The notes under the pieces are model-generated. The model searched no databases and had not been told where the DNA came from. It saw only the letters and a list, made by a program, of their open reading frames with translations. The position numbers and the translations under genes are program-made. Positions 30,880-46,622 of a DNA stretch of 64,000 bases are shown piece after piece. Position 1 is the first letter of the stretch. Every line of letters starts with the position of its first letter. Location: the NCBI RefSeq assembly GCF_016026235.1, contig NZ_CP065613.1; one strand, written 5' to 3'. The stretch is from Escherichia coli (GTDB lineage: Bacteria > Pseudomonadota > Gammaproteobacteria > Enterobacterales > Enterobacteriaceae).

Positions 30880-31242
30880 GGGGCTGATTCTGGATTCGAC
30901 GGGATTTGCGAAACCCAAGGTGCATGCCGAGGGGCGGTTGGCCTCGTAAAAAGCCGCAAAAAATAGTCGCAAACGACGAAAACTACGCTTTAGCAGCTTA
31001 ATAACCTGCTTAGAGCCCTCTCTCCCTAGCCTCCGCTCTTAGGACGGGGATCAAGAGAGGTCAAACCCAAAAGAGATCGCGTGGAAGCCCTGCCTGGGGT
31101 TGAAGCGTTAAAACTTAATCAGGCTAGTTTGTTAGTGGCGTGTCCGTCCGCAGCTGGCAAGCGAATGTAAAGACTGACTAAGCATGTAGTACCGAGGACG
31201 TAGGAATTTCGGACGCGGGTTCAACTCCCGCCAGCTCCACCA
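30880..31242 (+). ncRNA. ssrA: tmRNA (SsrA), 363 nt
   Basis: Begins GGGGCTGATTCTGGATTCGACGGGATTTGCG, contains the tag-encoding segment GCAAACGACGAAAACTACGCTTTAGCAGCTTAA (ANDENYALAA) and ends with the tRNA-like GGTTCAACTCCCGCCAGCTCCACCA. Confidence 0.97.
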
Positions 31243-31445
31243 AAATTCTCCATCGGTGATTACCAGAGTCATCCGATGAAGTCCTAAGAGCCCGCACGGC
31301 GCAAGCCCTGCGGGCTTTTTTGTATCTGCAATTTGTCCCGCGAAGTCCGAAGAGAACTAATTAAATCCGAACCTTTTAGGCCCATTGATAGGCCCAACGA
31401 AAAGCTCTATTGTTTTCGTTGGGCCTAAACGCATGGAGACTCCCC

Positions 31446-32687
31446 ATGGCAAGAAAAACCAAGCCGTTAACCGATACGGAAATCAAAGCCGCCAAACCTA
31501 AAGATGCCGATTACCAGCTGTATGATGGTGACGGGCTTACTCTGTTAATCAAGTCCAGTGGTAGTAAGCTCTGGCAGTTCCGTTACTATCGACCTCTGAC
31601 AAAGCAGCGAACCAAGCAGAGCTTCGGTGCCTACCCTGCCGTCTCACTTTCTGATGCGCGTAAACTCAGAGCCGAATCTCGAGTTTTATTGGCAAAAGAT
31701 ATTGATCCTCAGGAACATCAGAAAGAACAGGTGAGGAATTCTCAAGAGGCCAAAACCAACACCTTCTTGTTAGTTGCCGAGCGTTGGTGGAATGTGAAGA
31801 AAGCCAGCGTGACAGAGGACTATGCCGACGATATCTGGCGCTCGCTTGAGAGAGATGTTTTTCCAGCAATCGGTGATATCAGTGTCACTGAGATTAAGGC
31901 TCATACTCTGGTTAAAGCAGTTCAGCCGGTTCAGGCTAGAGGTGCATTAGAAACTGTTCGCCGTCTTTGTCAGCGTATTAACGAAGTCATGATTTATGCG
32001 CAGAACACGGGCCTGATTGATGCGGTTCCCAGCGTAAATATCGGAAAAGCGTTCGAGAAGCCTCAGAAAAAGAACATGCCGAGCATCCGGCCTGATCAAC
32101 TGCCTCAACTGATGCAGACGATGCGAACAGCAAACATCAGCCAATCAACACGATGCCTGTTCATGTGGCAGCTTCTTACTATTACCCGTCCTGCCGAAGC
32201 CGCTGAAGCTCGATGGGATGAGATCGATTTTGAAGCTAAAGAATGGAAAATTCCTGCAGCTCGAATGAAGATGAACCGGGACCATACGGTTCCATTGTCT
32301 GATGGAGCTCTCGCTATTCTGGCAATGATGAAGTCACTCAGTGGTGGCCGAGAATTTATCTTTCCTAGTCGAATCAAACCAACCCAGCCGATGAATAGCC
32401 AAACAGTGAATGCAGCACTCAAACGTGCTGGATTGGGAGGCGTTCTCGTTTCTCATGGCTTGCGTTCTATCGCCAGTACCGCCCTTAATGAACAAGGCTT
32501 CCCACCTGATGTTATTGAAGCGGCGCTGGCTCATGTGGACAAAAATGAAGTACGTCGCGCTTACAATCGCAGCGATTATCTTGAGCAGAGACGCCCGATG
32601 ATGCAGTGGTGGGCAAACCTTATAAAAGCGGCAGATAGTATTCCTACCGTTTGTAACGAAGTAGCAGGTCTTAGATTGGTTGGGTAG
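31446..32687 (+). CDS. intA: P4/CP4-57-type tyrosine integrase (site-specific recombinase)
   Basis: ORF 31410..32687; start taken at MARKTKPLTDTEIKAAKPKDADYQLYDGDGL (413 aa); sits directly 3' of ssrA, the classic attachment site of CP4-57-like elements; C-terminal HGLRS and Y-containing catalytic region. Confidence 0.9.
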   Translation: MARKTKPLTDTEIKAAKPKDADYQLYDGDGLTLLIKSSGSKLWQFRYYRPLTKQRTKQSFGAYPAVSLSDARKLRAESRVLLAKDIDPQEHQKEQVRNSQEAKTNTFLLVAERWWNVKKASVTEDYADDIWRSLERDVFPAIGDISVTEIKAHTLVKAVQPVQARGALETVRRLCQRINEVMIYAQNTGLIDAVPSVNIGKAFEKPQKKNMPSIRPDQLPQLMQTMRTANISQSTRCLFMWQLLTITRPAEAAEARWDEIDFEAKEWKIPAARMKMNRDHTVPLSDGALAILAMMKSLSGGREFIFPSRIKPTQPMNSQTVNAALKRAGLGGVLVSHGLRSIASTALNEQGFPPDVIEAALAHVDKNEVRRAYNRSDYLEQRRPMMQWWANLIKAADSIPTVCNEVAGLRLVG

Positions 32688-34185: not shown

Positions 34186-35883
34186 CTAATCATCTATTTT
34201 AAAATCAAAAATCCTTAAAATATCATTAAATGATGCTTCACATTGCCCCACAAGGCTAGTGAAGTGTGCACGTAGATTTTCATGATCGGTACGCGCTTCT
34301 AATATCGCTTTCTTCTTTTTTTCTGTAGAAGCATGTCCGCGTACTTCGGTTCGTAGAGCATGCAGTTTTTGCATAGGCTGAACTAACATTTTCGCTTCAT
34401 CTACTGTTGCACTTTTAGCAATAAGAGCTTCTTGTAGTATGCGCAAGGATCCCCATTTGGGTTCAATGATTCGGCCCTCATATTTAGCAATTTCACTCAG
34501 TGGCTTTGGTAAAAAGCCCTCAACTAAATACTGATCAAGCGCAAGGATTTCATCACCCCACTCTTTGATTGAATCTGTTGCAGGATACTGAACAGCGCCA
34601 CTCAATACTGTACCCCGTGGCTTCCACCAGGTGGGAGGATTCTTGTCCATTAGCGAAATTTTGTGTTTGAGTGCCAACAATGGTTCATTGGACAGATACC
34701 ATTCCCCAACAATATCCGTCTGAAATGCACGCTTAGAAATTGTTCCTTTTGGCCATTCATTGAAGGCTTGCCAATAGAGCTGTTCTTCATAAGGTAAATG
34801 AGCCAAATCACCAATGTATACATGAACTTGCCCGGCCTCATTAATATCATAGGATTTTAAATACCAAGCATTTCGACAAGCAATACTTCTTTCATCTAAA
34901 GTATATTTTTCTGGATCCGCCTTGAAACGATGTAACACTTCTGCTCTAAAAAAGGCAGGTGAAACTTCCCACGGTAATTTATTTTCTTGAAAATAGTTAG
35001 ATAGTGAGTCTGGTCCGCAAGATGTTTCAACATTGCAGCTATTTTTACGATCGTATATTTTAAAGGTTGCGTATTTCCTTTTAGATGGATTATCTTCATC
35101 CTTCCATGCTTTTACCAGACCGCGCACAGTTACTTGAGGGCGAATGATCATTACACCATTACAGTAACTGGCTTCCCCGTTAATACCACCATGATAAAAA
35201 AGACTCCCTTCATCTTTAGTATATCTGTTGATATTCCCCCAGCCAGCAAAATTACCCCATCTGACACGTGTAAAATCAAACTTTAAAACAAGACATGTTT
35301 TGGATAAAGCCATGAATGTATCTAAATCCTTTCTCTTAATAGTAACTATATCCAGATAGTTAAAAGGAGGTGAAATATTTTTGTTAATTATCCTGATTAC
35401 ATCTTCAATATCACCCCGTTCATCGAGACGACAATATGCATTTCTTTCTGGCAAGTAATATAACCCAAGGCTGTGCACAAGTTTCTGACTTAATTCGATA
35501 GGTGCACGGCCTTCTTCAACGCCATGAAACCTACGACGATAAATTAATGCCTCTCCCCCTTTGAACACCCCATCTAAAGGTGGCTCAAGATAAATACGAT
35601 GTCCTTGACCTCCACCCCATGACTTTTGAATCTTCCAACAATACTCAACATCCATACGCATATTCTGCAATGCCCATCTATCTGCTGTAGTAACATTTTT
35701 CTCTAGAGCTAGCGCGCCATGAATTAGGACACTATTTCCAATCGCGTAGATAACCACTTCATCATTTTGAGCATTTTCTTTCAGAAATTTAATTGACCTT
35801 TCAGCCTCTATTAACCAAGCGGCATCATCATTCTGTGGCTTTTCCGAAATAGCATGAAGCTCTGTGAATTTAAATTGGCTCAT
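34186..35883 (-). CDS. hypothetical protein, 565 aa (island cargo; no family recognised)
   Basis: Long uninterrupted ORF starting MSQFKFTELHAISEKPQNDDAAWLIEAERS...; AAGGA upstream of the ATG; lies directly downstream of the STAND operon. Confidence 0.7.
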   Translation of the reverse strand: MSQFKFTELHAISEKPQNDDAAWLIEAERSIKFLKENAQNDEVVIYAIGNSVLIHGALALEKNVTTADRWALQNMRMDVEYCWKIQKSWGGGQGHRIYLEPPLDGVFKGGEALIYRRRFHGVEEGRAPIELSQKLVHSLGLYYLPERNAYCRLDERGDIEDVIRIINKNISPPFNYLDIVTIKRKDLDTFMALSKTCLVLKFDFTRVRWGNFAGWGNINRYTKDEGSLFYHGGINGEASYCNGVMIIRPQVTVRGLVKAWKDEDNPSKRKYATFKIYDRKNSCNVETSCGPDSLSNYFQENKLPWEVSPAFFRAEVLHRFKADPEKYTLDERSIACRNAWYLKSYDINEAGQVHVYIGDLAHLPYEEQLYWQAFNEWPKGTISKRAFQTDIVGEWYLSNEPLLALKHKISLMDKNPPTWWKPRGTVLSGAVQYPATDSIKEWGDEILALDQYLVEGFLPKPLSEIAKYEGRIIEPKWGSLRILQEALIAKSATVDEAKMLVQPMQKLHALRTEVRGHASTEKKKKAILEARTDHENLRAHFTSLVGQCEASFNDILRIFDFKIDD

Positions 35884-35927: not shown

Positions 35928-35976
35928 TTATAAGTTATAAGTTATAAGTTATAAGTTATAAGTTATAAGTTATAAG
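35928..35976. repeat. perfect tandem heptanucleotide repeat (TTATAAG)x7
   Basis: 7 exact head-to-tail copies read directly from the sequence, in the 120-bp gap between the stop of the 482 aa gene and the start of the 565 aa gene. Confidence 0.95.
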
Positions 35977-36002
35977 TTCCCCTTATGAATTAAGAAATAA
36001 CA

Positions 36003-37451
36003 TCAAACAAATACCACCCCTCTCGTAATTTTTTCACTGAATCTGCCATAACTTCCATTACGATGGAATCTACGTACTTGCCAAGAGTAAAATGAGCGCA
36101 ATGACCCGGTATTTGTTATGTTTCTCTCGCGATATGTAGTGCCTCGCGATATGAGGGCTGTCCCACAATTACCTTGAATTTGCCCTAGCCTAGCTGGCCC
36201 CCATCCAGCATTCCAATAATAAAGCTCTGCGACGACTAGGTCCTTTAACTTAACCTGTAGACGCCCATCATGCGGGATGACTTCAAGAGAATTTTCTATG
36301 CCTGGCATCGTCGGTAAAAATAACCGGGATGGATACAAATCATGTTGTAGGTATCCTATCCGACCAAAATCGAGCATTCCCGCCAATGGCCAAGCCATAC
36401 AAGTTTTATTCACCAGTTGTTCAAAAGTTGGTGGAGTTATTAAGGTTGTTGTACTGAGTGGATCCGGAGCTTGGCTGGAAAGCATTTGTTCACGTGTCCA
36501 GAACGATTCAATATGGGATGTCAACGAGTCCGCTCCTTCCTTATCACTGCTTACAGTTTGTGACCACCGAACAATCGACAACTCTACGCACTGTTCCATT
36601 GACATTGAAATGGGCGAGCTAAATGCAATTAGCTCGTCTCCTGGGTTTGCCGCCTCTACTTGAGCAAAGAAAGTTCGCAATGAAGCCTCGATCGCCTTAC
36701 TATCACTTTTGAATTCAGTCGATACTGAGAGCCATTCGGGACGATAAGGTCGAAGAAAAGCCAAAGTTGGATGGATAGGCAACGCCAAGAGAGAATGTTG
36801 CTCGGTCAACTCCATTGGTATCCTCCAGATGTGTCTAGCCACAGCTAACGTGCGAAGATAAGCGGAAATTACGCGAAGGGCTGTTCGAGAGGAAAAATGA
36901 GGGGCAAAGCCCTCTCCCAAGGGCCGAATGAAATATCCTGCATCCCCTTGGTACGGTGCATTTGGATATGCCGTCCGGTTTTTTGTCCATTCGAAGGCCA
37001 TTTGTCGAATAAATGGACAGCGGGTAAAAGTTTCCAACTTGCTAATGGTTATATGGAAGATTCTTGGCAAATCCGTACCTTGAACACTATCAAAGTCATC
37101 GGGAATGATGAAGTCTTCTGGAGCTAGTTCCAAATCAGTATTCATGAGCAGAATCGATAACCCAAAATCTTTCATCAACAATGATGAAAGTGGTGAGGGT
37201 AGAAGAATATTCTCTGCCAACAAAGTCGTAGGAAAGTAGTTAAACTCTTTAATTGCCATCCAGAAAATACATAATACTTCGACAACCTCGGCTTCAAGTT
37301 TGCGCGAGCGCAGCAATTGAAGCAGCAATGATTCGGTTTCAGCTTTCGTCTCAGGCTCTCCCAGTCGAGCGGCAAGCTCCTGGATAGTCCACCACCGAGC
37401 AGACGTAGCAGGCCATCCAAGACGGGCAATAAGAATGCGAAGATCGTTCAT
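36003..37451 (-). CDS. hypothetical protein, about 482 aa, third gene of the STAND operon
   Basis: ORF 36003..37496; start more likely the ATG at 37451 (MNDLRILIARLGWPATSARWW...) because it overlaps the stop of the upstream gene as ATGA. Confidence 0.7.
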   Translation of the reverse strand: MNDLRILIARLGWPATSARWWTIQELAARLGEPETKAETESLLLQLLRSRKLEAEVVEVLCIFWMAIKEFNYFPTTLLAENILLPSPLSSLLMKDFGLSILLMNTDLELAPEDFIIPDDFDSVQGTDLPRIFHITISKLETFTRCPFIRQMAFEWTKNRTAYPNAPYQGDAGYFIRPLGEGFAPHFSSRTALRVISAYLRTLAVARHIWRIPMELTEQHSLLALPIHPTLAFLRPYRPEWLSVSTEFKSDSKAIEASLRTFFAQVEAANPGDELIAFSSPISMSMEQCVELSIVRWSQTVSSDKEGADSLTSHIESFWTREQMLSSQAPDPLSTTTLITPPTFEQLVNKTCMAWPLAGMLDFGRIGYLQHDLYPSRLFLPTMPGIENSLEVIPHDGRLQVKLKDLVVAELYYWNAGWGPARLGQIQGNCGTALISRGTTYRERNITNTGSLRSFYSWQVRRFHRNGSYGRFSEKITRGVVFV

Positions 37452-40400
37452 TTCACTTCCTGGGCGATTGGCTCGAGCAGTTTTGACATCCAGCAAGGTG
37501 GTTCTAAGGGCAAGGTCCGAGTATCCTCAATCACACAATTAACCATCGTCTCTGTGAACTTTACAGCTTCATCAATGCGATTTTGCTTAACGTAGAAATA
37601 GACCATAACTTCCGATGGAGCTAGGCGTGACGACACTGGCTCATCAAACATGTTGTAGGTTGTTACGGCCACAAATTCATCACAGCGCTGCGGATAATTT
37701 TGGACAACCAGGTCGAGTCTTTTGCAAGTCACATCCACGTTCTCCATGTAACCAATCCATCCCCCATTACGGATCTGTGCATGAACAAGATACTTCCAAG
37801 CTGCAGTTAAGCCACTTAATCTACGTTTTGTTTGAAATGCAAACTCGGAAAGATGTAGAGCTTCCCTCATCCATTTGTTGTTTTTTGCAAATAAAATCTT
37901 ATCCAGTTCGACGAGTAAATTTCGCCCCTGCTTTTGGCTTTCCCAGTGCTGATACCAAGTACGGAGAAGTTTTGGACGCTCTTTGTAATATGGTTCCAGA
38001 ACTTTGAGCAAGTCTTCCAATTGTTCAGGTCTAAAGACCGTCACATCACCTTCATAAGGTTTATTGTCAGCGTCACTACTTGAATTTTCGTGGCGTTGTA
38101 AACAACCAATATCCCATCCATTATGCTCTTCAAGAATGCGAAGCCGCTCGGAAGCAGTTGTACAACCATCCTCTACAAGTTGTTGAAGTGTATCCCGAAT
38201 TTCGGGATGAAGGCCTGTGCGCATTAGAGCATCCAGAGGCCACTCTTCAATGATTCCCTGTTTGATGTAGGCCTGCATACTGCTCTCGGCCAAAGCCCAG
38301 TCACCCACACATGTATGCTCTTCAAATTTTATTACCAATGCGGAAGGCTTCAGCTTTGCCAGTAGCCGATCTGCTTCAGCAAGAACATGTCTCGTACCCT
38401 TACCATCGGTGTAATCCAAAACATGGTGTATTTGCGGCGCAATTTTAGCCAGTAACCGACAAGCTTCTTTCGGCACTACATCAACTAAATAAGCGATGGC
38501 ATCAACCGTATTACTCAGTGTCGGATCTTTACGATGTCCGTATCCAGTGGTCAATTCCCACGTCTGCGTGCAAAGCTCACGAGCCTCCGAATTCAGTTGA
38601 TGGGAGATCGCTATCGCACAGAGTTGTAATGGTATTTGAAGATGTACACTGGTCTCATTTTGAATGTCTGCATCAAGTAACAAACGTTGAGCGCCAATGA
38701 ATGTTATAGCCGCTTCGTCGGCCATTCTGATCAATGAACCAGATGCGTACTGAGTGCGGAATGACGCACTATCGAACCAAGCGCATTGCAACGCAGCATC
38801 AATAGTCGATTGGGAAAGTACCACAGCACTAGTTCCCGAAAGCAGAACACTACCAATATATATATCGCAAGCAATACGGTGTAGTGCCGCTTGAAAGTCC
38901 GCCGTTGCCGATTTTCTAAAATAACTTTGTCTAAATCGCCGCGATTCAACAGGCTCGAGTAATTCATACAGCTCATGGAAGTTGATGAATTCCCCACACC
39001 ACCATCGTTGGGCTATTTGTGCACCAATTCCGGACAGTACATTGAGATAATCAGTAATATCTTCTCTATCTTCGTACATAGGGGCTTTGATGTGCTCGAA
39101 GTTTGTTTGCCCTTCTGCAATCATACAAAGATTCAGATGTACGGCACCAAACAGCCAGTGGTGCGTGAGAGTTGCCAAATTATCTTTGTGTTTGTAATAG
39201 CTGTCGCTTATCCAGTTCACCGGGATTGGTTGGCTCGAAGGAGTTGAGGTTTTGATTAACGCGACCTCTATTGCAGCCACAAATGGAGTTCTGACAAGTT
39301 CGTCGAAGTCCTCTCGCTCGGTCACTACTACCCCTGCAACCGCAGCCGCTCGTATACAAGCATCGCTAATTATGTTCTTTTTCTGTCCATCGGGTAGAGA
39401 AGCTGCTAGCAACATTAAATCATCCAAATTACCTTTTTGAATCAGCATTTGAACGCGAGGTAACCATATGTCCGGGCTATTTTTGTCGACTAACCAAGCG
39501 AGATTTTCAGATGTATCAGCGATAACGCCAAGCTGTGTAAATGCACTGGCCAGAAACAAGAGTTCATCAGAACCAGCCCTTGAATTATATTTATTGGAAA
39601 ATTGGCATAGGGCTCTGAACCGATGAAAGGCTTCTTCACCGCAAATTTCTGCCTGAATAATATCCCCTCGAGACAGTAAGGCCAGACCAAGTGCAACAAC
39701 GTGTAAAATATCCGTTTCATGCCTAGAGGCTATAGACTCACGTATCACACTTTCCTCTGAGGTTAGTGTCAATGTAAAAGATATGAGCCTAGCCAGATCG
39801 CTATCCTGCATCTGAAATTGACTTCCATCAACCATACGAGCTTTCAGATGCGCCAACCGGTAGGCATCTGAAAAATTTGCAGTTTCAAGCGCAGCGCTCA
39901 GGGCTTCTGACAATAATATCTCAAATAAAGCTTCTGAATATCCTTCTTTTAAGCGACTCATGATCCAGTCACGAGTTAAACCTGTAATGAGATTGTTGGG
40001 GTTACCAAGCTTCGCTTGAACTGTCCATAACCAGTTCACTCGTAGTGAAGTAGGTGCCTGATGTTCAAGCCAGTCTGCAATAACAGGCATTAATTCATTG
40101 ATTCGACTCTCATAGTCATCAGTTGCACGTACGAAAACAGCCAAACTTTCATGGAAGACTTTAAGACCAGCCACAGACGAATGGAGCAAATGCTCTACTT
40201 TATCCACATCTGGTTCCACCGCCTTAATTTTGGTAGCAATCTCTGAGAAGGCTGTCTTAGGCCAGAAAAAAGTAAAGGCACAGATAAGCCTTAGCGTATC
40301 CTTTTGGCTTGGAGCAAGACGTTCCCATAGAGATGCATAGTAAAATCGGGCGTCTTGGCTCAAGTCTCCCTTCAACTGCTCAATATCCCAACTGGATAGT

Positions 40401-41875
40401 CTGCGACCCGAATGTTTCAATTCTGATGTAGCATAAATAACGTGAAGAGGATGGCCATTAGTTTTCTTACGAAGAGCGGATGCTGCACTCTGCAGTTGTT
40501 CTTCAATTTGTTCTTCACTTTCAAAACCAGTTGTAAGCCAGCCTTCTTGAACTGTTCTACGTAGATAAGAAAGTACTGCACTCTCAGACATTGCAGGCAA
40601 TGTATGCCACTCAGATTTTGGTGCAAAGGCGAGCAAATCCGCTGGCAACTGTTCGTCATTTACCGGTTGAGTGCCGACGAGCAGTACCATATTTTCCGGG
40701 CAGGGAATTACCTGACAGAAAAGGTCATCTAGTGGTCGTTTATCCTCAGCGTTGATACGCCAGACATGATCCAAACCATCAAGAATGAGCACAAATGGCT
40801 TTCCCAGTACTTTGTAGTGGGCAGCACATGCCTCCAATTGTGTATGTAAGCCTCCACCAGTTTTCGGGACATCCTCGTGAAACTGTTGGATCTGCGCCAG
40901 AATGGATTGCTCGACAATGTAGCTATTAACCCGGTCGCGGCCTCGCTCGGTTGTCGACAGAAAATAGTGATGGCGAACCGTTGGGATACCTTTTTCTGCA
41001 AGCGTGTCGCACAGTGCGCTCAGGTAAGTACTCTTTCCGCGTCCTGGTGGACCAGTCAGCACAATTGCCTTTCCGGTAGCATTAATTGTGCTCTGGACAA
41101 ATTCTTGATGGAATATTTCATCAGGAACCTCATAACCTTCTGGAACAACAAAATCCTCTGGCAAAGGAGCTGGAGGTGAAGCTCGCAAGATGGTTCCAAC
41201 CTCTGCCAGTTTAATCCAGCCATCCGGCGCAGGGAGATTTTTTTGCGTTGCCCAATTCAGAGCCACATATTTTAGATTAGCGATTCCCTCTGGCGTACCA
41301 TGCAGTCGAAGGCGAGCATCAACTTCATGCTCCAATGCAAGATAGCCCTTATCGCTGTGTCGAATACATAATTGTCTGAAGAAAAGTTTGCATTCCTCAA
41401 CGCCGCCGAGTTCAACTTCTACCAAGGTGCGCTGAGGTTCTGGGATCTTAGAAGGATCAATCCGGTCTCGTTCCAGACAAACCTCAATAGCAGCATCTGG
41501 TCGGCGATTCGTTATGAGCGAAATTTCGCCAATACGCACTGGATCAAGTTGTTTGAAAGCATCGAACCATTTGCGTAGCATCGATCTCGACCGCTCTGTC
41601 TTGCCCGTTTTCTCCAGCATCCAATCCCAAGATAGAAGATGCGTCTCAGAATCTGGGGTGAACTTGATCTGCTGAAGGTCAACGAAGCCATCACTTCGTT
41701 CGATGACGATATCATCTAGTCCCTGTGGTGCTTCGTTTTCATTATCACATTCAAATTTCACGCGGCTATAGCGCGTCGGCGCATCAAGCCAATCGCACAG
41801 GACCTTAAGGCCCTGGCGATTTTGATAAATATAACCAGCTGCAGTGATGGCGGTTTTCTTAATATCTTCACTCAT
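37448..41875 (-). CDS. STAND-class P-loop NTPase (NACHT-like) with N-terminal nuclease-like domain and long C-terminal helical region; candidate anti-phage sensor/effector
   Basis: 1475 aa; Walker A VLTGPPGRGKST, Walker B FVLILDGLDHV (hhhhDGLD, NACHT-type); N-terminal ~250 aa contain ...GLDDIVIERSDGFVDLQQIKF (D...QxK, restriction-endonuclease-fold-like); C-terminal ~1000 aa helix-rich with no enzymatic motif. Confidence 0.8.
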   Translation of the reverse strand: MSEDIKKTAITAAGYIYQNRQGLKVLCDWLDAPTRYSRVKFECDNENEAPQGLDDIVIERSDGFVDLQQIKFTPDSETHLLSWDWMLEKTGKTERSRSMLRKWFDAFKQLDPVRIGEISLITNRRPDAAIEVCLERDRIDPSKIPEPQRTLVEVELGGVEECKLFFRQLCIRHSDKGYLALEHEVDARLRLHGTPEGIANLKYVALNWATQKNLPAPDGWIKLAEVGTILRASPPAPLPEDFVVPEGYEVPDEIFHQEFVQSTINATGKAIVLTGPPGRGKSTYLSALCDTLAEKGIPTVRHHYFLSTTERGRDRVNSYIVEQSILAQIQQFHEDVPKTGGGLHTQLEACAAHYKVLGKPFVLILDGLDHVWRINAEDKRPLDDLFCQVIPCPENMVLLVGTQPVNDEQLPADLLAFAPKSEWHTLPAMSESAVLSYLRRTVQEGWLTTGFESEEQIEEQLQSAASALRKKTNGHPLHVIYATSELKHSGRRLSSWDIEQLKGDLSQDARFYYASLWERLAPSQKDTLRLICAFTFFWPKTAFSEIATKIKAVEPDVDKVEHLLHSSVAGLKVFHESLAVFVRATDDYESRINELMPVIADWLEHQAPTSLRVNWLWTVQAKLGNPNNLITGLTRDWIMSRLKEGYSEALFEILLSEALSAALETANFSDAYRLAHLKARMVDGSQFQMQDSDLARLISFTLTLTSEESVIRESIASRHETDILHVVALGLALLSRGDIIQAEICGEEAFHRFRALCQFSNKYNSRAGSDELLFLASAFTQLGVIADTSENLAWLVDKNSPDIWLPRVQMLIQKGNLDDLMLLAASLPDGQKKNIISDACIRAAAVAGVVVTEREDFDELVRTPFVAAIEVALIKTSTPSSQPIPVNWISDSYYKHKDNLATLTHHWLFGAVHLNLCMIAEGQTNFEHIKAPMYEDREDITDYLNVLSGIGAQIAQRWWCGEFINFHELYELLEPVESRRFRQSYFRKSATADFQAALHRIACDIYIGSVLLSGTSAVVLSQSTIDAALQCAWFDSASFRTQYASGSLIRMADEAAITFIGAQRLLLDADIQNETSVHLQIPLQLCAIAISHQLNSEARELCTQTWELTTGYGHRKDPTLSNTVDAIAYLVDVVPKEACRLLAKIAPQIHHVLDYTDGKGTRHVLAEADRLLAKLKPSALVIKFEEHTCVGDWALAESSMQAYIKQGIIEEWPLDALMRTGLHPEIRDTLQQLVEDGCTTASERLRILEEHNGWDIGCLQRHENSSSDADNKPYEGDVTVFRPEQLEDLLKVLEPYYKERPKLLRTWYQHWESQKQGRNLLVELDKILFAKNNKWMREALHLSEFAFQTKRRLSGLTAAWKYLVHAQIRNGGWIGYMENVDVTCKRLDLVVQNYPQRCDEFVAVTTYNMFDEPVSSRLAPSEVMVYFYVKQNRIDEAVKFTETMVNCVIEDTRTLPLEPPCWMSKLLEPIAQEVK

Positions 41876-41879
41876 AGCA

Positions 41880-44800
41880 TCAAGGTATGTTTAGTTCGGT
41901 TTTGATCCAAGTGTCCAAAGTGTCTACACGTACAAACTGGGTCGGAACAGGATATGGCGGATGAACCATCCAGTAGTACACATCGCGGCTTACATAGAGT
42001 TCAATATTCCTTAAAGGAACACTCTCTGGCTGTGGCCACTGGAGCAGTTCAAGCAACCTTGAACGGTGAGTTTCGAGAAATTTTCTGCGGTCTAAAATAC
42101 GACTGAATTGTCCTGCCCTGTCATTCTCTGCCTTGCCAAATATCCGATCACGAAGACGACGGCTATCTTTCATTGTAAATGGCGGCTGGTTGTACTTACA
42201 CTCTACTGTCACGAGCAAATTGCTTTCCGGCCAGTATGCAAAAACATCGAAATCACCAACGTCATCAAACTTCTCTTCCCGGAATCTTCTAAAGAAATCA
42301 ATACCTCGCTGAACATAAGGTGTATGCCTGCGGAATATTTCCTCTGTACGAAGCTCGAGACGCTTTTCAATACTCTCCTTAACCTCGCGAATGACTGGCT
42401 TAACATGAGGCCAATCAAATTCCGCAGGCAAATAACCGTCTCGTACCGCCGACATCCAAATGTACATTGCCCGGCTTGCCGACTCTGCCCCCCAACGCAA
42501 ATCGGCACCATCAATTACCAGCGGCTTGATAGTGTATCGATCGATTCGCTTATTCCGCTCCCAATATGGAATATCTCCTTCATCGATATCCCTTCCAACG
42601 AGCCTACGAACTCCTACTTCCGAAAGAGTCAGAAAAGCAACAATCTTTTGGGCCTCAGAATAGTCAAGCCTATCAATGCTATCAGCCAACCCTCGCGCAA
42701 GGCGATCAGGTGCTGCAGCATAAGACAAGGAAAGTTCGTTCCCGAATCCATATCGTTGAGCTTGCGATAACACAGCGAGAACAGTGAGCATATTCTGAAG
42801 CTCGAACCCCAAATCGGTGATAAAAGCTTTTTTGAGTTTCTCTGAAGCCAGCAACCCCTCTGGCTCTCCTTCCACCGCATCCTTGTCATTTGTGCCAAGC
42901 CCCAACCTGGACTTCGCATACTCCTTTGCAAAGGTAGCCTCACGATCACCAAAATCTGTCGAATAGAAAACTTCTGGAATATATGAGTCGTCGATCTCAA
43001 CACCACCCACATCTATACCATTGTGAAGGGTATCACTGGCACCAGTCAGCACCATGAACCAATCAACCAAGCCAACTAATTCTCGTAGTACATCCTCTGT
43101 AACTCTATCTACACCATTTGAAGATAAATTGACGGTCTTCTCTAGTAGATATCGATAATGGCGGGCCTTATCACCGAATTCTTTGCGTGCATGTTCTATC
43201 GCATCAAGTCTGTCATACTCAACTTCATGAGCAAGACTCAAACGGGCTCGTTGGATTCTAGTCCTCTCAGTAACAAGGAGGGCATCGTGTTGCTCGATGA
43301 ATGCCTGCAGAAGCTGATGCCTATCAAATGCTGCAAGTCGATTCTCAATGTGAAGACGCATGCGAGCACTGGAAGGATCAATCCTGGCCTTGGCATCTGA
43401 CAGTTCATACCTGCCAGGAATAAACCCAAGCCCCATGATTTCTGCGGCCAGTTTTCTACGGGCAAGCTTGTAATCGGTAGGCGAAGGAATTATAGGGTAT
43501 ACATAGTCGGGGACATCAATATTACGGGTCATGACTTTTAAATGATAACGAGCCGCTTGCGACGCTATATGAGTAAATCGTTGAGCAAATTCATCAGGCA
43601 TCTGCAAACCAAGTACTGCATGACATTTTTCGAGCGTTTCCAGTAAGCAACGAACCTCGAATGATCCATCCTTGGAAAGATTTAATCCAGCAAGCACTGC
43701 ACGTGTATCAACTTGAACGTGAAATACATCGGGGTTGTGGGAATCCGGGATGACTGAAGTCACCACGTGTTTAAATTCGTCTAAAGAAGAAGGACTCTCT
43801 TCAGCTTTAACCAGACTAGATGGTTCAGGGGAGCACGTAAACAAAACATGCGGCTGCCTAAATAGAGAAATATCAGACATCATTTTTCTGCAGCGATAGC
43901 TACAGTCGGCCAGAAGTTGGGCAAAAAGGTCTATCAGACGTCCATCTTCAAAGCGTAATTCTTTGGTTATTTCTATTAATGTTTGAACGGTACAGGAACC
44001 AATCGATGTTGAGTATGCCATCGCTTTGTGATGACGCGATTCAAGTCGAACGACACCTTCAGTTGAAGAACTCAACGTCCATCCGATAGAGCTGTCTGGA
44101 AATACCTTGGGTGCACGAGACCAGAATTCTGTCAATATCTTGAAGCGCCAAGAAGTCCCCCAGTGAGGGTCTAGCCCAATGAAGTTAGGTGCAATCGCAC
44201 CTTCGACAAGCACACCATGCATGTCTTTGAATGATGCAAACAGGTCTACTGTTCCACGGGAAAATGGGCTGAGCGTCCCCTCTTGAGCATCTGTAAATTT
44301 CCAATAACTTTCTAATTCTTCCAGATCGTTGAGACTATCAAAAATCGTGATGAAATCCGCTAATGGAAACAAACGAGTTGGCTTTGAGGGGAGATTGATG
44401 GAATTAAACGCAGTACCCGCGAGTGTAACGACAATAACGATGTGAAGCTCATCGACGCTAGGTTCTGCACCAACTCTAGATAGAGAAAGGAAACGTCCAT
44501 CATCAAGACGGAAGAAAATCGGCGATCCACGACTCACCTTGGCGTATATGCTTTCCGCTGCGTTTGACAGGCGGTCATTAGATGTATGGTCACATGTGCA
44601 AATGAGATATATCCCAGAATTACCCAGTATAATACAACTGATAGGCAGGTCTTTGCAGGCGGTGCCGTCAACATACAGAGTCAAAGGCCCTATAAGGGTT
44701 CTTTGGAATCGCTCAGCGACAAACTCTGCAAGTTTCCTGTGCGTAGAGGGGCTAATCCCGTTCAGATTTTTGTTAGCCCAATGGTCAATAATGAGACCCG

Positions 44801-45662
44801 GTGCACTGCGTACTGACATTGGTATCCATACCCTATCCATCTCGACAGCAAGGAAAGGTAGCGCCATGCCTTGCATCACTGCATTTCCGAACGCATCCGG
44901 TTTCAGCGGTGCTTTGAAAGTGCCAACACGAGTATCGAACGTACACCCTGCTTTCTTTCGGCGGTTCGCTAGCTCATTGCCAAGTTGTTGAAGCAAAGAC
45001 TTGCAAGTCAACCAGAAGTCTTCAGTAGCTAGTTCAACATCAGCACATTGGGCCTCGGTGTTGACAGAGAGCATCAACTCAGGAATCGATTCGATGATCT
45101 GCGCTTGCAGCGCAATGGCAAGATCCATATGGGCTTGTGCTTCTGGAATATGAGCATAGGTAATGCGAAATGCTTCTACGAAGTCAGACATTCTCTCAAT
45201 GCAACTCCCGTAGAACATAGGGACGAAGTCTTGACCAAGCCGTACTTTGATTTGCCCCCAATCAGCCTCGGGGGAAAAATCCTCAAGCATTGGGAATTCA
45301 GGCCATGATGCGTATAATTCTTTTGTAAATACTTTAAAATCTACATAGCTATCAATCGATATACCTACCTGAGACTCAAATGGCAGCTCTAAAAGGACAC
45401 ACCAAGCAAAAATATGCTTTATGGGGCTACCTGTATTGGCTGGCCAGAGTTCGGAAGTAAATAATGCAACTGCTACGTCGAGGGTTTTGTATCGGCGAAA
45501 TAAATTCTGGGTGGCTTCCAGATGCTTACAAAAGTATGTGTCTTCACCTACCCCATTCGTAAACAATTCACGATATCTGGACATATCGTGTATCAAAGAA
45601 TCATAATCAACCTTTTGCTCTGTTAGTTTTCTTTCCCGCTTTTCACGTGACTTCCTACCCAC
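41880..45662 (-). CDS. large protein (1260 aa) with C-terminal PD-(D/E)xK-like nuclease motif; first gene of the STAND operon
   Basis: GTG start preceded by GGGAGGA Shine-Dalgarno; no Walker A found on reading; C-terminus has GDFDVFAYWPESNLLVTVECKY (D-x15-ExK); stop lies 4 nt before the start of the STAND gene. Confidence 0.75.
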   Translation of the reverse strand: MGRKSREKRERKLTEQKVDYDSLIHDMSRYRELFTNGVGEDTYFCKHLEATQNLFRRYKTLDVAVALFTSELWPANTGSPIKHIFAWCVLLELPFESQVGISIDSYVDFKVFTKELYASWPEFPMLEDFSPEADWGQIKVRLGQDFVPMFYGSCIERMSDFVEAFRITYAHIPEAQAHMDLAIALQAQIIESIPELMLSVNTEAQCADVELATEDFWLTCKSLLQQLGNELANRRKKAGCTFDTRVGTFKAPLKPDAFGNAVMQGMALPFLAVEMDRVWIPMSVRSAPGLIIDHWANKNLNGISPSTHRKLAEFVAERFQRTLIGPLTLYVDGTACKDLPISCIILGNSGIYLICTCDHTSNDRLSNAAESIYAKVSRGSPIFFRLDDGRFLSLSRVGAEPSVDELHIVIVVTLAGTAFNSINLPSKPTRLFPLADFITIFDSLNDLEELESYWKFTDAQEGTLSPFSRGTVDLFASFKDMHGVLVEGAIAPNFIGLDPHWGTSWRFKILTEFWSRAPKVFPDSSIGWTLSSSTEGVVRLESRHHKAMAYSTSIGSCTVQTLIEITKELRFEDGRLIDLFAQLLADCSYRCRKMMSDISLFRQPHVLFTCSPEPSSLVKAEESPSSLDEFKHVVTSVIPDSHNPDVFHVQVDTRAVLAGLNLSKDGSFEVRCLLETLEKCHAVLGLQMPDEFAQRFTHIASQAARYHLKVMTRNIDVPDYVYPIIPSPTDYKLARRKLAAEIMGLGFIPGRYELSDAKARIDPSSARMRLHIENRLAAFDRHQLLQAFIEQHDALLVTERTRIQRARLSLAHEVEYDRLDAIEHARKEFGDKARHYRYLLEKTVNLSSNGVDRVTEDVLRELVGLVDWFMVLTGASDTLHNGIDVGGVEIDDSYIPEVFYSTDFGDREATFAKEYAKSRLGLGTNDKDAVEGEPEGLLASEKLKKAFITDLGFELQNMLTVLAVLSQAQRYGFGNELSLSYAAAPDRLARGLADSIDRLDYSEAQKIVAFLTLSEVGVRRLVGRDIDEGDIPYWERNKRIDRYTIKPLVIDGADLRWGAESASRAMYIWMSAVRDGYLPAEFDWPHVKPVIREVKESIEKRLELRTEEIFRRHTPYVQRGIDFFRRFREEKFDDVGDFDVFAYWPESNLLVTVECKYNQPPFTMKDSRRLRDRIFGKAENDRAGQFSRILDRRKFLETHRSRLLELLQWPQPESVPLRNIELYVSRDVYYWMVHPPYPVPTQFVRVDTLDTWIKTELNIP

Positions 45663-45959
45663 TTCATATCCTCCCTGTATGCATACGTTGACAGTCTATA
45701 CGGTATCGAAGCATAGAAATTATTAATGCGTATCATAATGAATATCTTGAGTCACTTACTGTACCGCCCTCACAAAAGTGCATAGCCTCAAACTATCAAA
45801 CACATCCGACAAATTGTTACATTTATATTATTGCAACCATAAAACCCAATAATTTGATAAATAATAAATTTTTCTTATTTCAACTAGTCACACTTCAGAT
45901 TGGTTTACATAACTTTAGCGCAAATCACTGTTTGCCAATAATCACTTCTTCAAAAGCGG

Positions 45960-46195
45960 CTTTCACATTTTCATCCTCCGCTATCCGCCCTGATCAGTTA
46001 CCACAGCTAATGCAGACAATGCGAAATGCCAACATTATTTTGCCTACTCGATGCTTGTTCATGTGGCAACTTCTAACTATCTCACGACCCGCAGAAGCGG
46101 CAGAAGCTCGTTGGGATGAGATCGATTTTGAAGCTAAAGAATGGAAAATTCCTGCAGCTCGAATGAAGATGAACCGGGACCATACGGTTCCGCTA
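45960..46195 (+). pseudogene. truncated second copy of a P4-type integrase (internal fragment only)
   Basis: Encodes ...IRPDQLPQLMQTMRNANIILPTRCLFMWQLLTISRPAEAAEARWDEIDFEAKEWKIPAARMKMNRDHTVPL, matching residues ~215-285 of the intact integrase at 31446..32687; 80 bp (46112..46191) are identical to 32214..32293; no N- or C-terminal part present. Confidence 0.85.
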
Positions 46196-46622
46196 GGTTC
46201 GCGAGGCCTGAGCTTGGCGCAGCTATCGCCAGCAGAATCACCGCTGATGCAAGTGGCGCAGGCGCAGTTAAAGCATCTGTTACCCGCACATCTGATGGCT
46301 TCATTTTCGCCGTTTTTTAGTCAAGCGGGACACACTTCCTAGCCACAGCAAACGGGCGCTGAGAGAGTGGGAATGGCCGCAGAAGGTGCGGGTGGTCGCG
46401 GCCAGTCAGCCGCTCCTACCACCGGTGATCCAGGAAGGCATGTTTGACGCGGTCAGTGAAGCGCTTTACCAAGACCCTTGGCTGAACATTGATTACCGCA
46501 ATGCTCAAGATACTCGCCGTCAGGCGGAGGTGATGCCCCTTGGTTTTAGTCCTACAGGGCTCACGTCTGCAAAGCTAATGGGAAGAGTGTGGTACTCACT
46601 CTCTCCCATATAATCTTCCAAA

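Follow-up and report, generated by a model that had tools for sequence, protein, structure and literature searches.

The 64,000-nt window analysed here, one strand of an Escherichia coli contig (NCBI RefSeq assembly GCF_016026235.1, contig NZ_CP065613.1), carries an operon headed by gene A, which encodes a protein of 1260 residues (41880..45662, minus strand) and is followed by genes B and C. We found that gene A is a member of the Upx family of defence proteins in its wider sense, the one that Evans et al. 2026 (bioRxiv 10.64898/2026.04.30.721860) drew up with PSI-BLAST. It belongs to the Avs1-associated Upx clade and stands next to a two-gene, split Avs1-type STAND nucleoside triphosphatase (NTPase). 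We put at roughly 70% the probability that A is a single-chain Upx sensor-nuclease and that A and the split Avs1 (B and C) are two self-sufficient terminase sensors kept in one operon. The family, its structure, the nuclease site, the likely trigger and the pairing with Avs1 are already known from the 2026 literature. As a discovery gene A adds little to it; what is given here is an independent confirmation of the split B+C partner.

Upx is a defence protein that acts on its own and has a large sensor domain (Zhou et al., PMC13099982; Evans et al.). The family is broadly distributed and recognises phage large terminases by their ATPase domain: diverse terminase ATPase domains activate SeUpx, HpUpx and PbUpx, all three cloned as single genes for testing (Evans et al.). 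The structure of the Salmonella protein, SeUpx (WP_060647174.1 / SQI81149.1), was solved by cryo-electron microscopy (9WUF; PMC13099982) and has a canonical PD-(D/E)xK site formed by D1161, E1176 and K1178. The E1176A substitution, and likewise E1176A/K1178A, abolishes defence (PMC13099982; Evans et al.). According to Evans et al., the Avs1-associated Upx proteins form one clade and their partner is a split-TPR (tetratricopeptide repeat) variant of Avs1. The association is given there without experiment or explanation, and our literature search found no experiment on an Avs1-linked Upx.

Family membership and nuclease domain of gene A

Scanned as a single sequence, the 1260-residue protein matches nothing in Pfam, PHROGs or PDB, and its only library signal is a faint Upx match over the catalytic motif in PADLOC and NCBIfam. 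Its 246 close relatives are, without exception, named 'hypothetical'. The family comprises 526 cluster representatives at 50% identity, with homology along the whole length down to 24% identity; the full-length representatives among those listed have about 1240-1290 residues. The link to Upx emerged only from the comparison of a family profile with PDB. The profile of 62 gene A homologues matched 9wuf_A (1272 residues, 'restriction endonuclease') with an E-value of 5.8e-14 in two collinear blocks, the second of which places GDxD...ECK of the gene A family on GDID...ECK of 9wuf_A. The AlphaFold2 (AF2) model of gene A, which covers residues 61-1260 (predicted local distance difference test score, pLDDT, 91.7; predicted template modelling score 0.87), points to the same protein. 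In a Foldseek search of PDB, 9wuf was the sole significant match, over the full length (E 1.7e-24, template modelling score 0.57, 13% identity).

The initial annotation, made from the letters alone, had proposed such profile and structure searches, and both reach SeUpx. It had considered a large protein with a terminal nuclease an unusual partner for a STAND NTPase. This is not supported: A is a full-length homologue of a known defence family, and its pairing is already catalogued. The protein thus does match a characterised family, the outcome that the annotation had named as speaking against it, and the function of that family is not unrelated, Upx being a defence nuclease. Gene A also has the attributes of Upx, namely a single chain of ~1250 residues whose large sensor region carries no annotation and which lacks a STAND or P-loop NTPase and any Pfam domain; the family median is 1245 residues (Fig. 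S13a of Evans et al.).

The window protein is one residue apart (P934S) from E. coli WP_000532863.1, which is listed in Table S5 of Evans et al. in cluster 92. The representative of this cluster, WP_000532864.1 (1260 residues), is annotated there as 'Next to Avs1'. The accession appears solely in this supplementary table and in none of the full texts of papers. P934S aside, gene A is a member of the Avs1-associated clade described there (Fig. S13, Table S5).

The annotation rightly pointed to a C-terminal PD-(D/E)xK-like motif. As a bare pattern the motif is at chance level: D-x(8-25)-[DE]xK occurs 9 times in the protein, as compared with 9.2 +/- 4.1 occurrences in shuffled sequences. It is the conservation across homologues, and not the pattern frequency, that makes the motif meaningful. 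Residues 61-1260 contain seven [DE]xK tripeptides, and E1154-x-K1156 is the sole one conserved among 104 homologues reaching down to 21% identity. In this set D1139 is retained in 100%, E1154 in 99-100%, K1156 in 98% and D1137 in 95% of sequences. The complete motif, G1136-D1137-F-D1139 ... E1154-C-K1156 (GDFDVFAYWPESNLLVTVECK), lies at 42195..42257 on the minus strand, within a predicted nuclease domain of ~170 residues (~1087-1260; 41883..42404, minus strand). In the AF2 model of this domain D1139 starts the second strand, and E1154 and K1156 end the third; the profile match to 9wuf_A aligns the site to SeUpx D1161/E1176/K1178. Because the model matches 9wuf and presents the alpha-beta-beta-beta-alpha-beta order with D1139 and E1154/K1156 in place, the reading of the C-terminus as a nuclease, in its fold and in its catalytic triplet D1139, E1154 and K1156, is confirmed, and A is a full-length Upx homologue.

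The absence of a P-loop, also noted in the annotation, agrees with a pattern search for Walker A ([AG]xxxxGK[ST]), which found none in the gene A protein, in contrast to GPPGRGKS in the downstream gene B. The FokI cleavage domain, Can2/Card1, Shedu SduA and McrC share only the catalytic domain with A, and its ~1050-residue sensor body is without counterpart in them. A differs from SeUpx in several respects: identity in structural alignments is 12-13%, SeUpx is a stand-alone gene whereas A heads an operon with a split Avs1, the Lys/Arg-rich tail at the N-terminus of A is missing from SeUpx, and the reported N-terminal catalytic residues of SeUpx tentatively seem not to be conserved in A.

The non-catalytic body of A (about residues 61-1086; 42405..45482, minus strand) matches 9wuf through the N-terminal sensor, middle and helical C-terminal regions of Upx. 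By analogy with the proteins studied by Evans et al. 2026, we infer that this body serves as the sensor. It contains a cluster of acidic residues, E127, D128, E132, D134 and D160, that is near-invariant in the 104 homologues and adjoins the first beta-hairpin of the N-terminal domain. Zhou et al. (PMC13099982) propose that the trigger of SeUpx is gp16 and that its N-terminal domain harbours a second nuclease site (D122, D127, R129, E147, D173). Applied to gene A, this would make the protein an autoinhibited 3'-5' exonuclease of single-stranded DNA with N- and C-terminal catalytic centres. A phage structural or ejection protein would unlock it, and it would degrade replication intermediates in place of a terminase-triggered suicide. 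The biochemistry and mutagenesis of SeUpx favour such a model, and so does the acidic cluster, which resembles the EDPAED stretch of SeUpx. However, SeUpx D122, D127 and R129, which are reported to be essential, fall on variable positions 143/145/147 of the gene A family, close to the cluster, in a manual motif alignment that is statistically unsupported. Moreover, in the experiments of Evans et al. terminase, not gp16, is the sole PhiV-1 activator, and terminases of gp16-less phages also activate. We consider this dual-nuclease model, taken as a whole, quite unlikely for A.

The N-terminal 60 residues of A (45483..45662, minus strand) include a Lys/Arg-rich tail (MGRKSREKRERKL; 45624-45662 in E. 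coli). In a comparison of Upx relatives that included P0136 (locus L010 6107-9961), P0175 and P0257, such a tail (MGKKSRxKRE...) is kept down to about 31% identity. Some relatives have a SEC-C zinc motif (PF02810) in place of the tail, and more distant ones have neither. SEC-C is the module by which SecA binds ribosomes and SecB. The tail of A may serve as a tether to ribosomes or nucleic acid.

The open reading frame (ORF) of gene A extends from a GTG start codon (45662-45660) to a TGA stop codon (41882-41880), and the product has a mass of 143 kDa. A Shine-Dalgarno sequence, GGGAGGA (45677-45671, minus strand), is found 6 nt 5' of the GTG. An ATG at 45667-45665 is out of frame, and its frame terminates 14 codons on. 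The GTG, the Shine-Dalgarno sequence and the out-of-frame ATG had been read in the same way in the annotation, and the N-termini of orthologues agree with its choice of start. In Halomonas and Providencia the gene A orthologues share this start position, where they have ATG-GGN-AAR and encode the identical peptide MGKKSR..., indicating that the GTG is the true start. Promoter and terminator scans gave no signal above shuffled sequence.

The split Avs-type partner

Gene B (37448..41875, minus strand) encodes a STAND/NACHT NTPase of 1475 residues, identified from PADLOC, Pfam and its RefSeq name ('NACHT domain-containing protein') as the leading part of an Avs1-type protein that is split. It consists of an N-terminal Cap4/Mrr-like nuclease (~9-145), a NACHT NTPase and a long helical C-terminal region. 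Residues 9-145 match the PADLOC models SAVED_PDDEXK (2.8e-8), endonuclease effector (1.2e-7) and LmuA (1.6e-5), and the match to Pfam Cap4_nuclease is weak (0.12). The nuclease motif D54/D55...Q69-x-K71 is kept in the Halomonas and Providencia copies. The Walker A motif GPPGRGKS is located at residue 275, and Pfam NACHT is matched with 5.8e-12. PADLOC Avs1b (4.4e-11) is the only Avs model matched. No sequence-level PDB match was found for gene B. The Avs1 label that we use for B and C is provisional, following Evans et al. and the best PADLOC match, which covers the NTPase region only.

Gene C (36003..37451, minus strand; 482 residues) supplies the C-terminal part of the split Avs sensor as a separate protein, as judged from its junction with gene B, its modelled structure and its collinearity with an unsplit relative. 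Its start overlaps the stop of gene B (ATGA), and the overlap is also present in Halomonas and Providencia. Gene C has no sequence-family match in PADLOC, NCBIfam, PHROGs or Pfam. Its AF2 model, of moderate confidence (pLDDT 67.9), has as its only significant PDB matches the SeAvs3-terminase chains 8dgc_A/B (E 6e-6). In the Klebsiella pneumoniae plasmid pC240_1, segments similar to B (95-1462) and to C (4-455) lie in frame within one ORF of 1842 residues. The summed length of B and C, 1957 residues, is near the size of SeAvs3, about 2000 (SeAvs3-terminase structure 8DGC). The 8dgc match of C, the single ORF of pC240_1 and the summed size together confirm that B and C are one Avs-type protein divided into two genes. 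Like Avs1 and Avs3, this protein opens with a nuclease effector, continues with a STAND/NACHT NTPase and ends in a large sensor; unlike them, it has its sensor spread over two genes.

The unsplit relative of pC240_1 (L014, CP067932.1, 2421-9389) has had its N-terminal nuclease part removed by an ISKpn26 insertion, and a gene for a 'SEC-C domain-containing protein' is found nearby on the opposite strand. NCBI records commonly give homologues of gene C (P0272-P0390) the name 'multidrug DMT transporter permease' or 'DMT family permease'. Pfam shows no transporter match for gene C, whose model is helical plus beta-rich, and this naming looks like a propagated mis-annotation.

The Avs1b match of gene B led us to consider the architecture of AVAST type I, which is composed of Avs1a, a metallo-beta-lactamase (MBL) pro-nuclease, and Avs1b, a protease-STAND protein (PMC12799240). 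The two arrangements are alike in having a nuclease gene immediately upstream of an Avs1-type STAND gene. In our case, however, the upstream gene encodes a Upx with PD-(D/E)xK, three times the size of Avs1a, and B has a Cap4-like nuclease and no protease. The Avs1A, MBL and protease models match neither A nor B. Since both the MBL and the protease of the published definition are missing, AVAST type I was rejected.

Relationship between gene A and the split Avs

Four nucleotides separate the TGA of gene A (41882-41880) from the ATG of gene B (41875), with no overlap and no obvious Shine-Dalgarno sequence. The initial annotation had described the two genes as translationally coupled; the close spacing is there and the overlap is not. 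Elsewhere the junction varies, the Halomonas orthologues overlapping by 8 nt and the Providencia orthologues lying 10 nt apart. The gene order A-B-C is common to E. coli, where it lies in the ssrA/intA island, Halomonas and Providencia. The identities between the hosts are 68/57% for A, 69/60.5% for B and 61/51% for C, consistent with parallel divergence.

Nevertheless, A and B+C are naturally separable. Burkholderia cenocepacia (L013) has B and C that are 66% and 57% identical to those of E. coli, with no trace of A. Similarly, in the Pseudomonas aeruginosa plasmid pF061_1 (L015) B is 68% and C 60% identical, and A is absent. Full-length C homologues of 52-60% identity, adjoining 'ATP-binding protein' genes, are also carried by plasmids from Klebsiella, Azonexus and Cupriavidus metallidurans CH34 (H12-H19). 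A tblastn search with gene A returned zero matches in 72,556 plasmids, a null result that is informative because C is present on plasmids. With or without A, the B copies show the same closeness to E. coli B, which means that the cassette has acquired or shed A in the course of its history. Relatives of A, for their part, are stand-alone genes with unrelated neighbours at 26-38% identity. The Avs1 linkage of Upx relatives begins between about 45% and 57% identity; the contigs of P0122 and P0144 are too short to show neighbours.

The occurrence of Upx relatives and of the split Avs each on their own argues for two self-sufficient sensors over a nuclease controlled by the NTPase, and the finding of the split Avs with and without Upx at similar divergence argues for modular stacking. 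The first ~1050 residues of A make up the Upx sensor body, and the last ~170 its PD-(D/E)xK nuclease. By analogy with SeUpx, HpUpx and PbUpx, the sensor would most likely bind the locally unfolded ATPase domain of a phage large terminase. This would free the nuclease, which would stop the infection through DNA damage or cell death and so bring about abortive infection. The split Avs is expected to sense terminase too, with B contributing the Cap4-like nuclease, NACHT and helical repeats and C the rest of the sensor. Two sensors with different recognition modes and their own nucleases would form a double lock that is hard for phages to escape; the catalytic residues are intact in both A and B. 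We infer the trigger, the outcome and the functional independence of A and B+C from these comparisons. The annotation had proposed that A could be a second effector or a scaffold under NTPase control. This appears less likely than two self-sufficient sensors: Upx works alone with its own sensor, A and B+C are separable, and B has its own nuclease.

Several points weigh against our interpretation. The curated hidden Markov models of Upx barely detect gene A: the NCBIfam equivalog NF042954 scores 10 bits against a cut-off of 1900, and the PADLOC model PDLC02221 reaches an E-value of 0.054 over the catalytic motif only. These models describe a SeUpx-like subgroup, which means that gene A is not an equivalog of SeUpx. 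When the family profile was aligned by hhalign to SeUpx residues 1-399, the match fell short of significance (E 0.23), so the N-terminal homology between A and SeUpx rests on structure comparison. The two Upx papers conflict on the trigger, terminase gp19 or ejection protein gp16, and on the N-terminal domain, a sensor or a second nuclease. The tight operon linkage, the 4-nt gap between A and B without a Shine-Dalgarno sequence and the monophyletic Avs1 clade would also fit functional integration, and all 10 of the complete E. coli genomes with A also hold B and C.

These latter observations would fit an integrated system of the three proteins, in line with the second effector or scaffold of the annotation. 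Here Upx would belong to the split Avs1 machine as one of its subunits: STAND oligomerisation might switch it on as an additional effector, or it might be a co-sensor that captures or unfolds terminase and hands it to the split sensor. The A-B-C order with near-coupled junctions in three distant hosts, the parallel divergence of A and B, the grouping of Avs1-associated Upx proteins into one clade by Evans et al. 2026 and the constant company of A and B+C in E. coli all favour this possibility. The splitting of the Avs sensor might have accompanied the recruitment of a new partner, and stand-alone Upx, a monomer, might oligomerise upon activation. On the other hand, B and C are found without A at 66-68% identity, no further from E. 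coli B than the copies that have A beside them; Upx homologues defend alone, and the relatives that share 26-38% identity with A are stand-alone genes. In addition, B has its own nuclease effector, and A has kept its whole sensor body together with an intact catalytic site. On balance we regard an integrated three-protein system as unlikely. A specific form of it, which we hold to be rather doubtful, is that Upx and the split Avs1 make one machine in which Upx captures the unfolded or nascent ATPase domain of terminase, possibly tethered by its tail to ribosomes or nucleic acid, and C and the NACHT protein read out the complex. Similarly doubtful is its corollary that the two nucleases would fire only if both recognition modes agree. 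If true, no earlier case would be known of a pattern-recognition protein outside the STAND class being wired into a bacterial protein resembling nucleotide-binding leucine-rich repeat receptors (NLRs).

The cassette is carried by 10 of 5426 complete E. coli genomes, and in one E. coli genome, NZ_OY757949.1, IS3/IS1203 insertion sequences interrupt both A and B. This rarity and these insertions could be taken as signs that A is a decaying, non-functional passenger of a mobile island and its motif a relic. Such a reading is extremely improbable in view of the intact ORF of 1260 codons, the 526 cluster representatives with homology down to 24% identity, the 95-100% conservation of the catalytic residues and the very confident model.

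Two self-sufficient sensors thus remain our preferred reading, and the operon offers a natural test case for the keeping of two different terminase sensors together. The split Avs copies with and without Upx are matched natural controls, and the E. coli copy of the Avs1-linked Upx is in its native host and easy to test. Standard annotation misses this clade: RefSeq names the protein 'hypothetical protein', and the NCBIfam and PADLOC scores are far below threshold.

Islet context and neighbouring genes

The regions 30880-32687 and 45854-46342 place the A-B-C cassette in the ssrA (tmRNA, transfer-messenger RNA) island. It is flanked by an intact intA integrase gene (31410-32687) and, on the other side, by a fragment of another integrase from that family (45854-46342). 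This position suggests a nested islet. In an eleventh genome, FDAARGOS_943, only C and the 3' end of B are left. In Providencia rettgeri (L004/L005, 2024-19636) a Tn7-like transposon (tnsABCDE), inserted beside glmS, has A-B-C as its first cargo, directly after tnsE. The stand-alone Upx relative P0127 (35% identity; L009 5918-11738) directly follows a gene for a KAP-family P-loop NTPase and precedes a RhuM gene; its NTPase neighbour is thus another one than Avs1.

Gene D (34186..35883, minus strand), downstream of gene C, encodes an orphan protein of 565 residues (WP_000077295.1) with no match in PADLOC, NCBIfam, PHROGs, Pfam or PDB. The cassettes of Halomonas and Providencia lack this E. coli gene, and for this reason it is probably outside the core system; it may be a separate defence gene. 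Between C and D, just upstream of D, we detected a perfect heptamer tandem repeat of 7.3 copies (35928-35978; TTATAAG on the plus strand, AACTTAT on the minus strand), which could be a slippage-prone spacer altering the expression of gene D.

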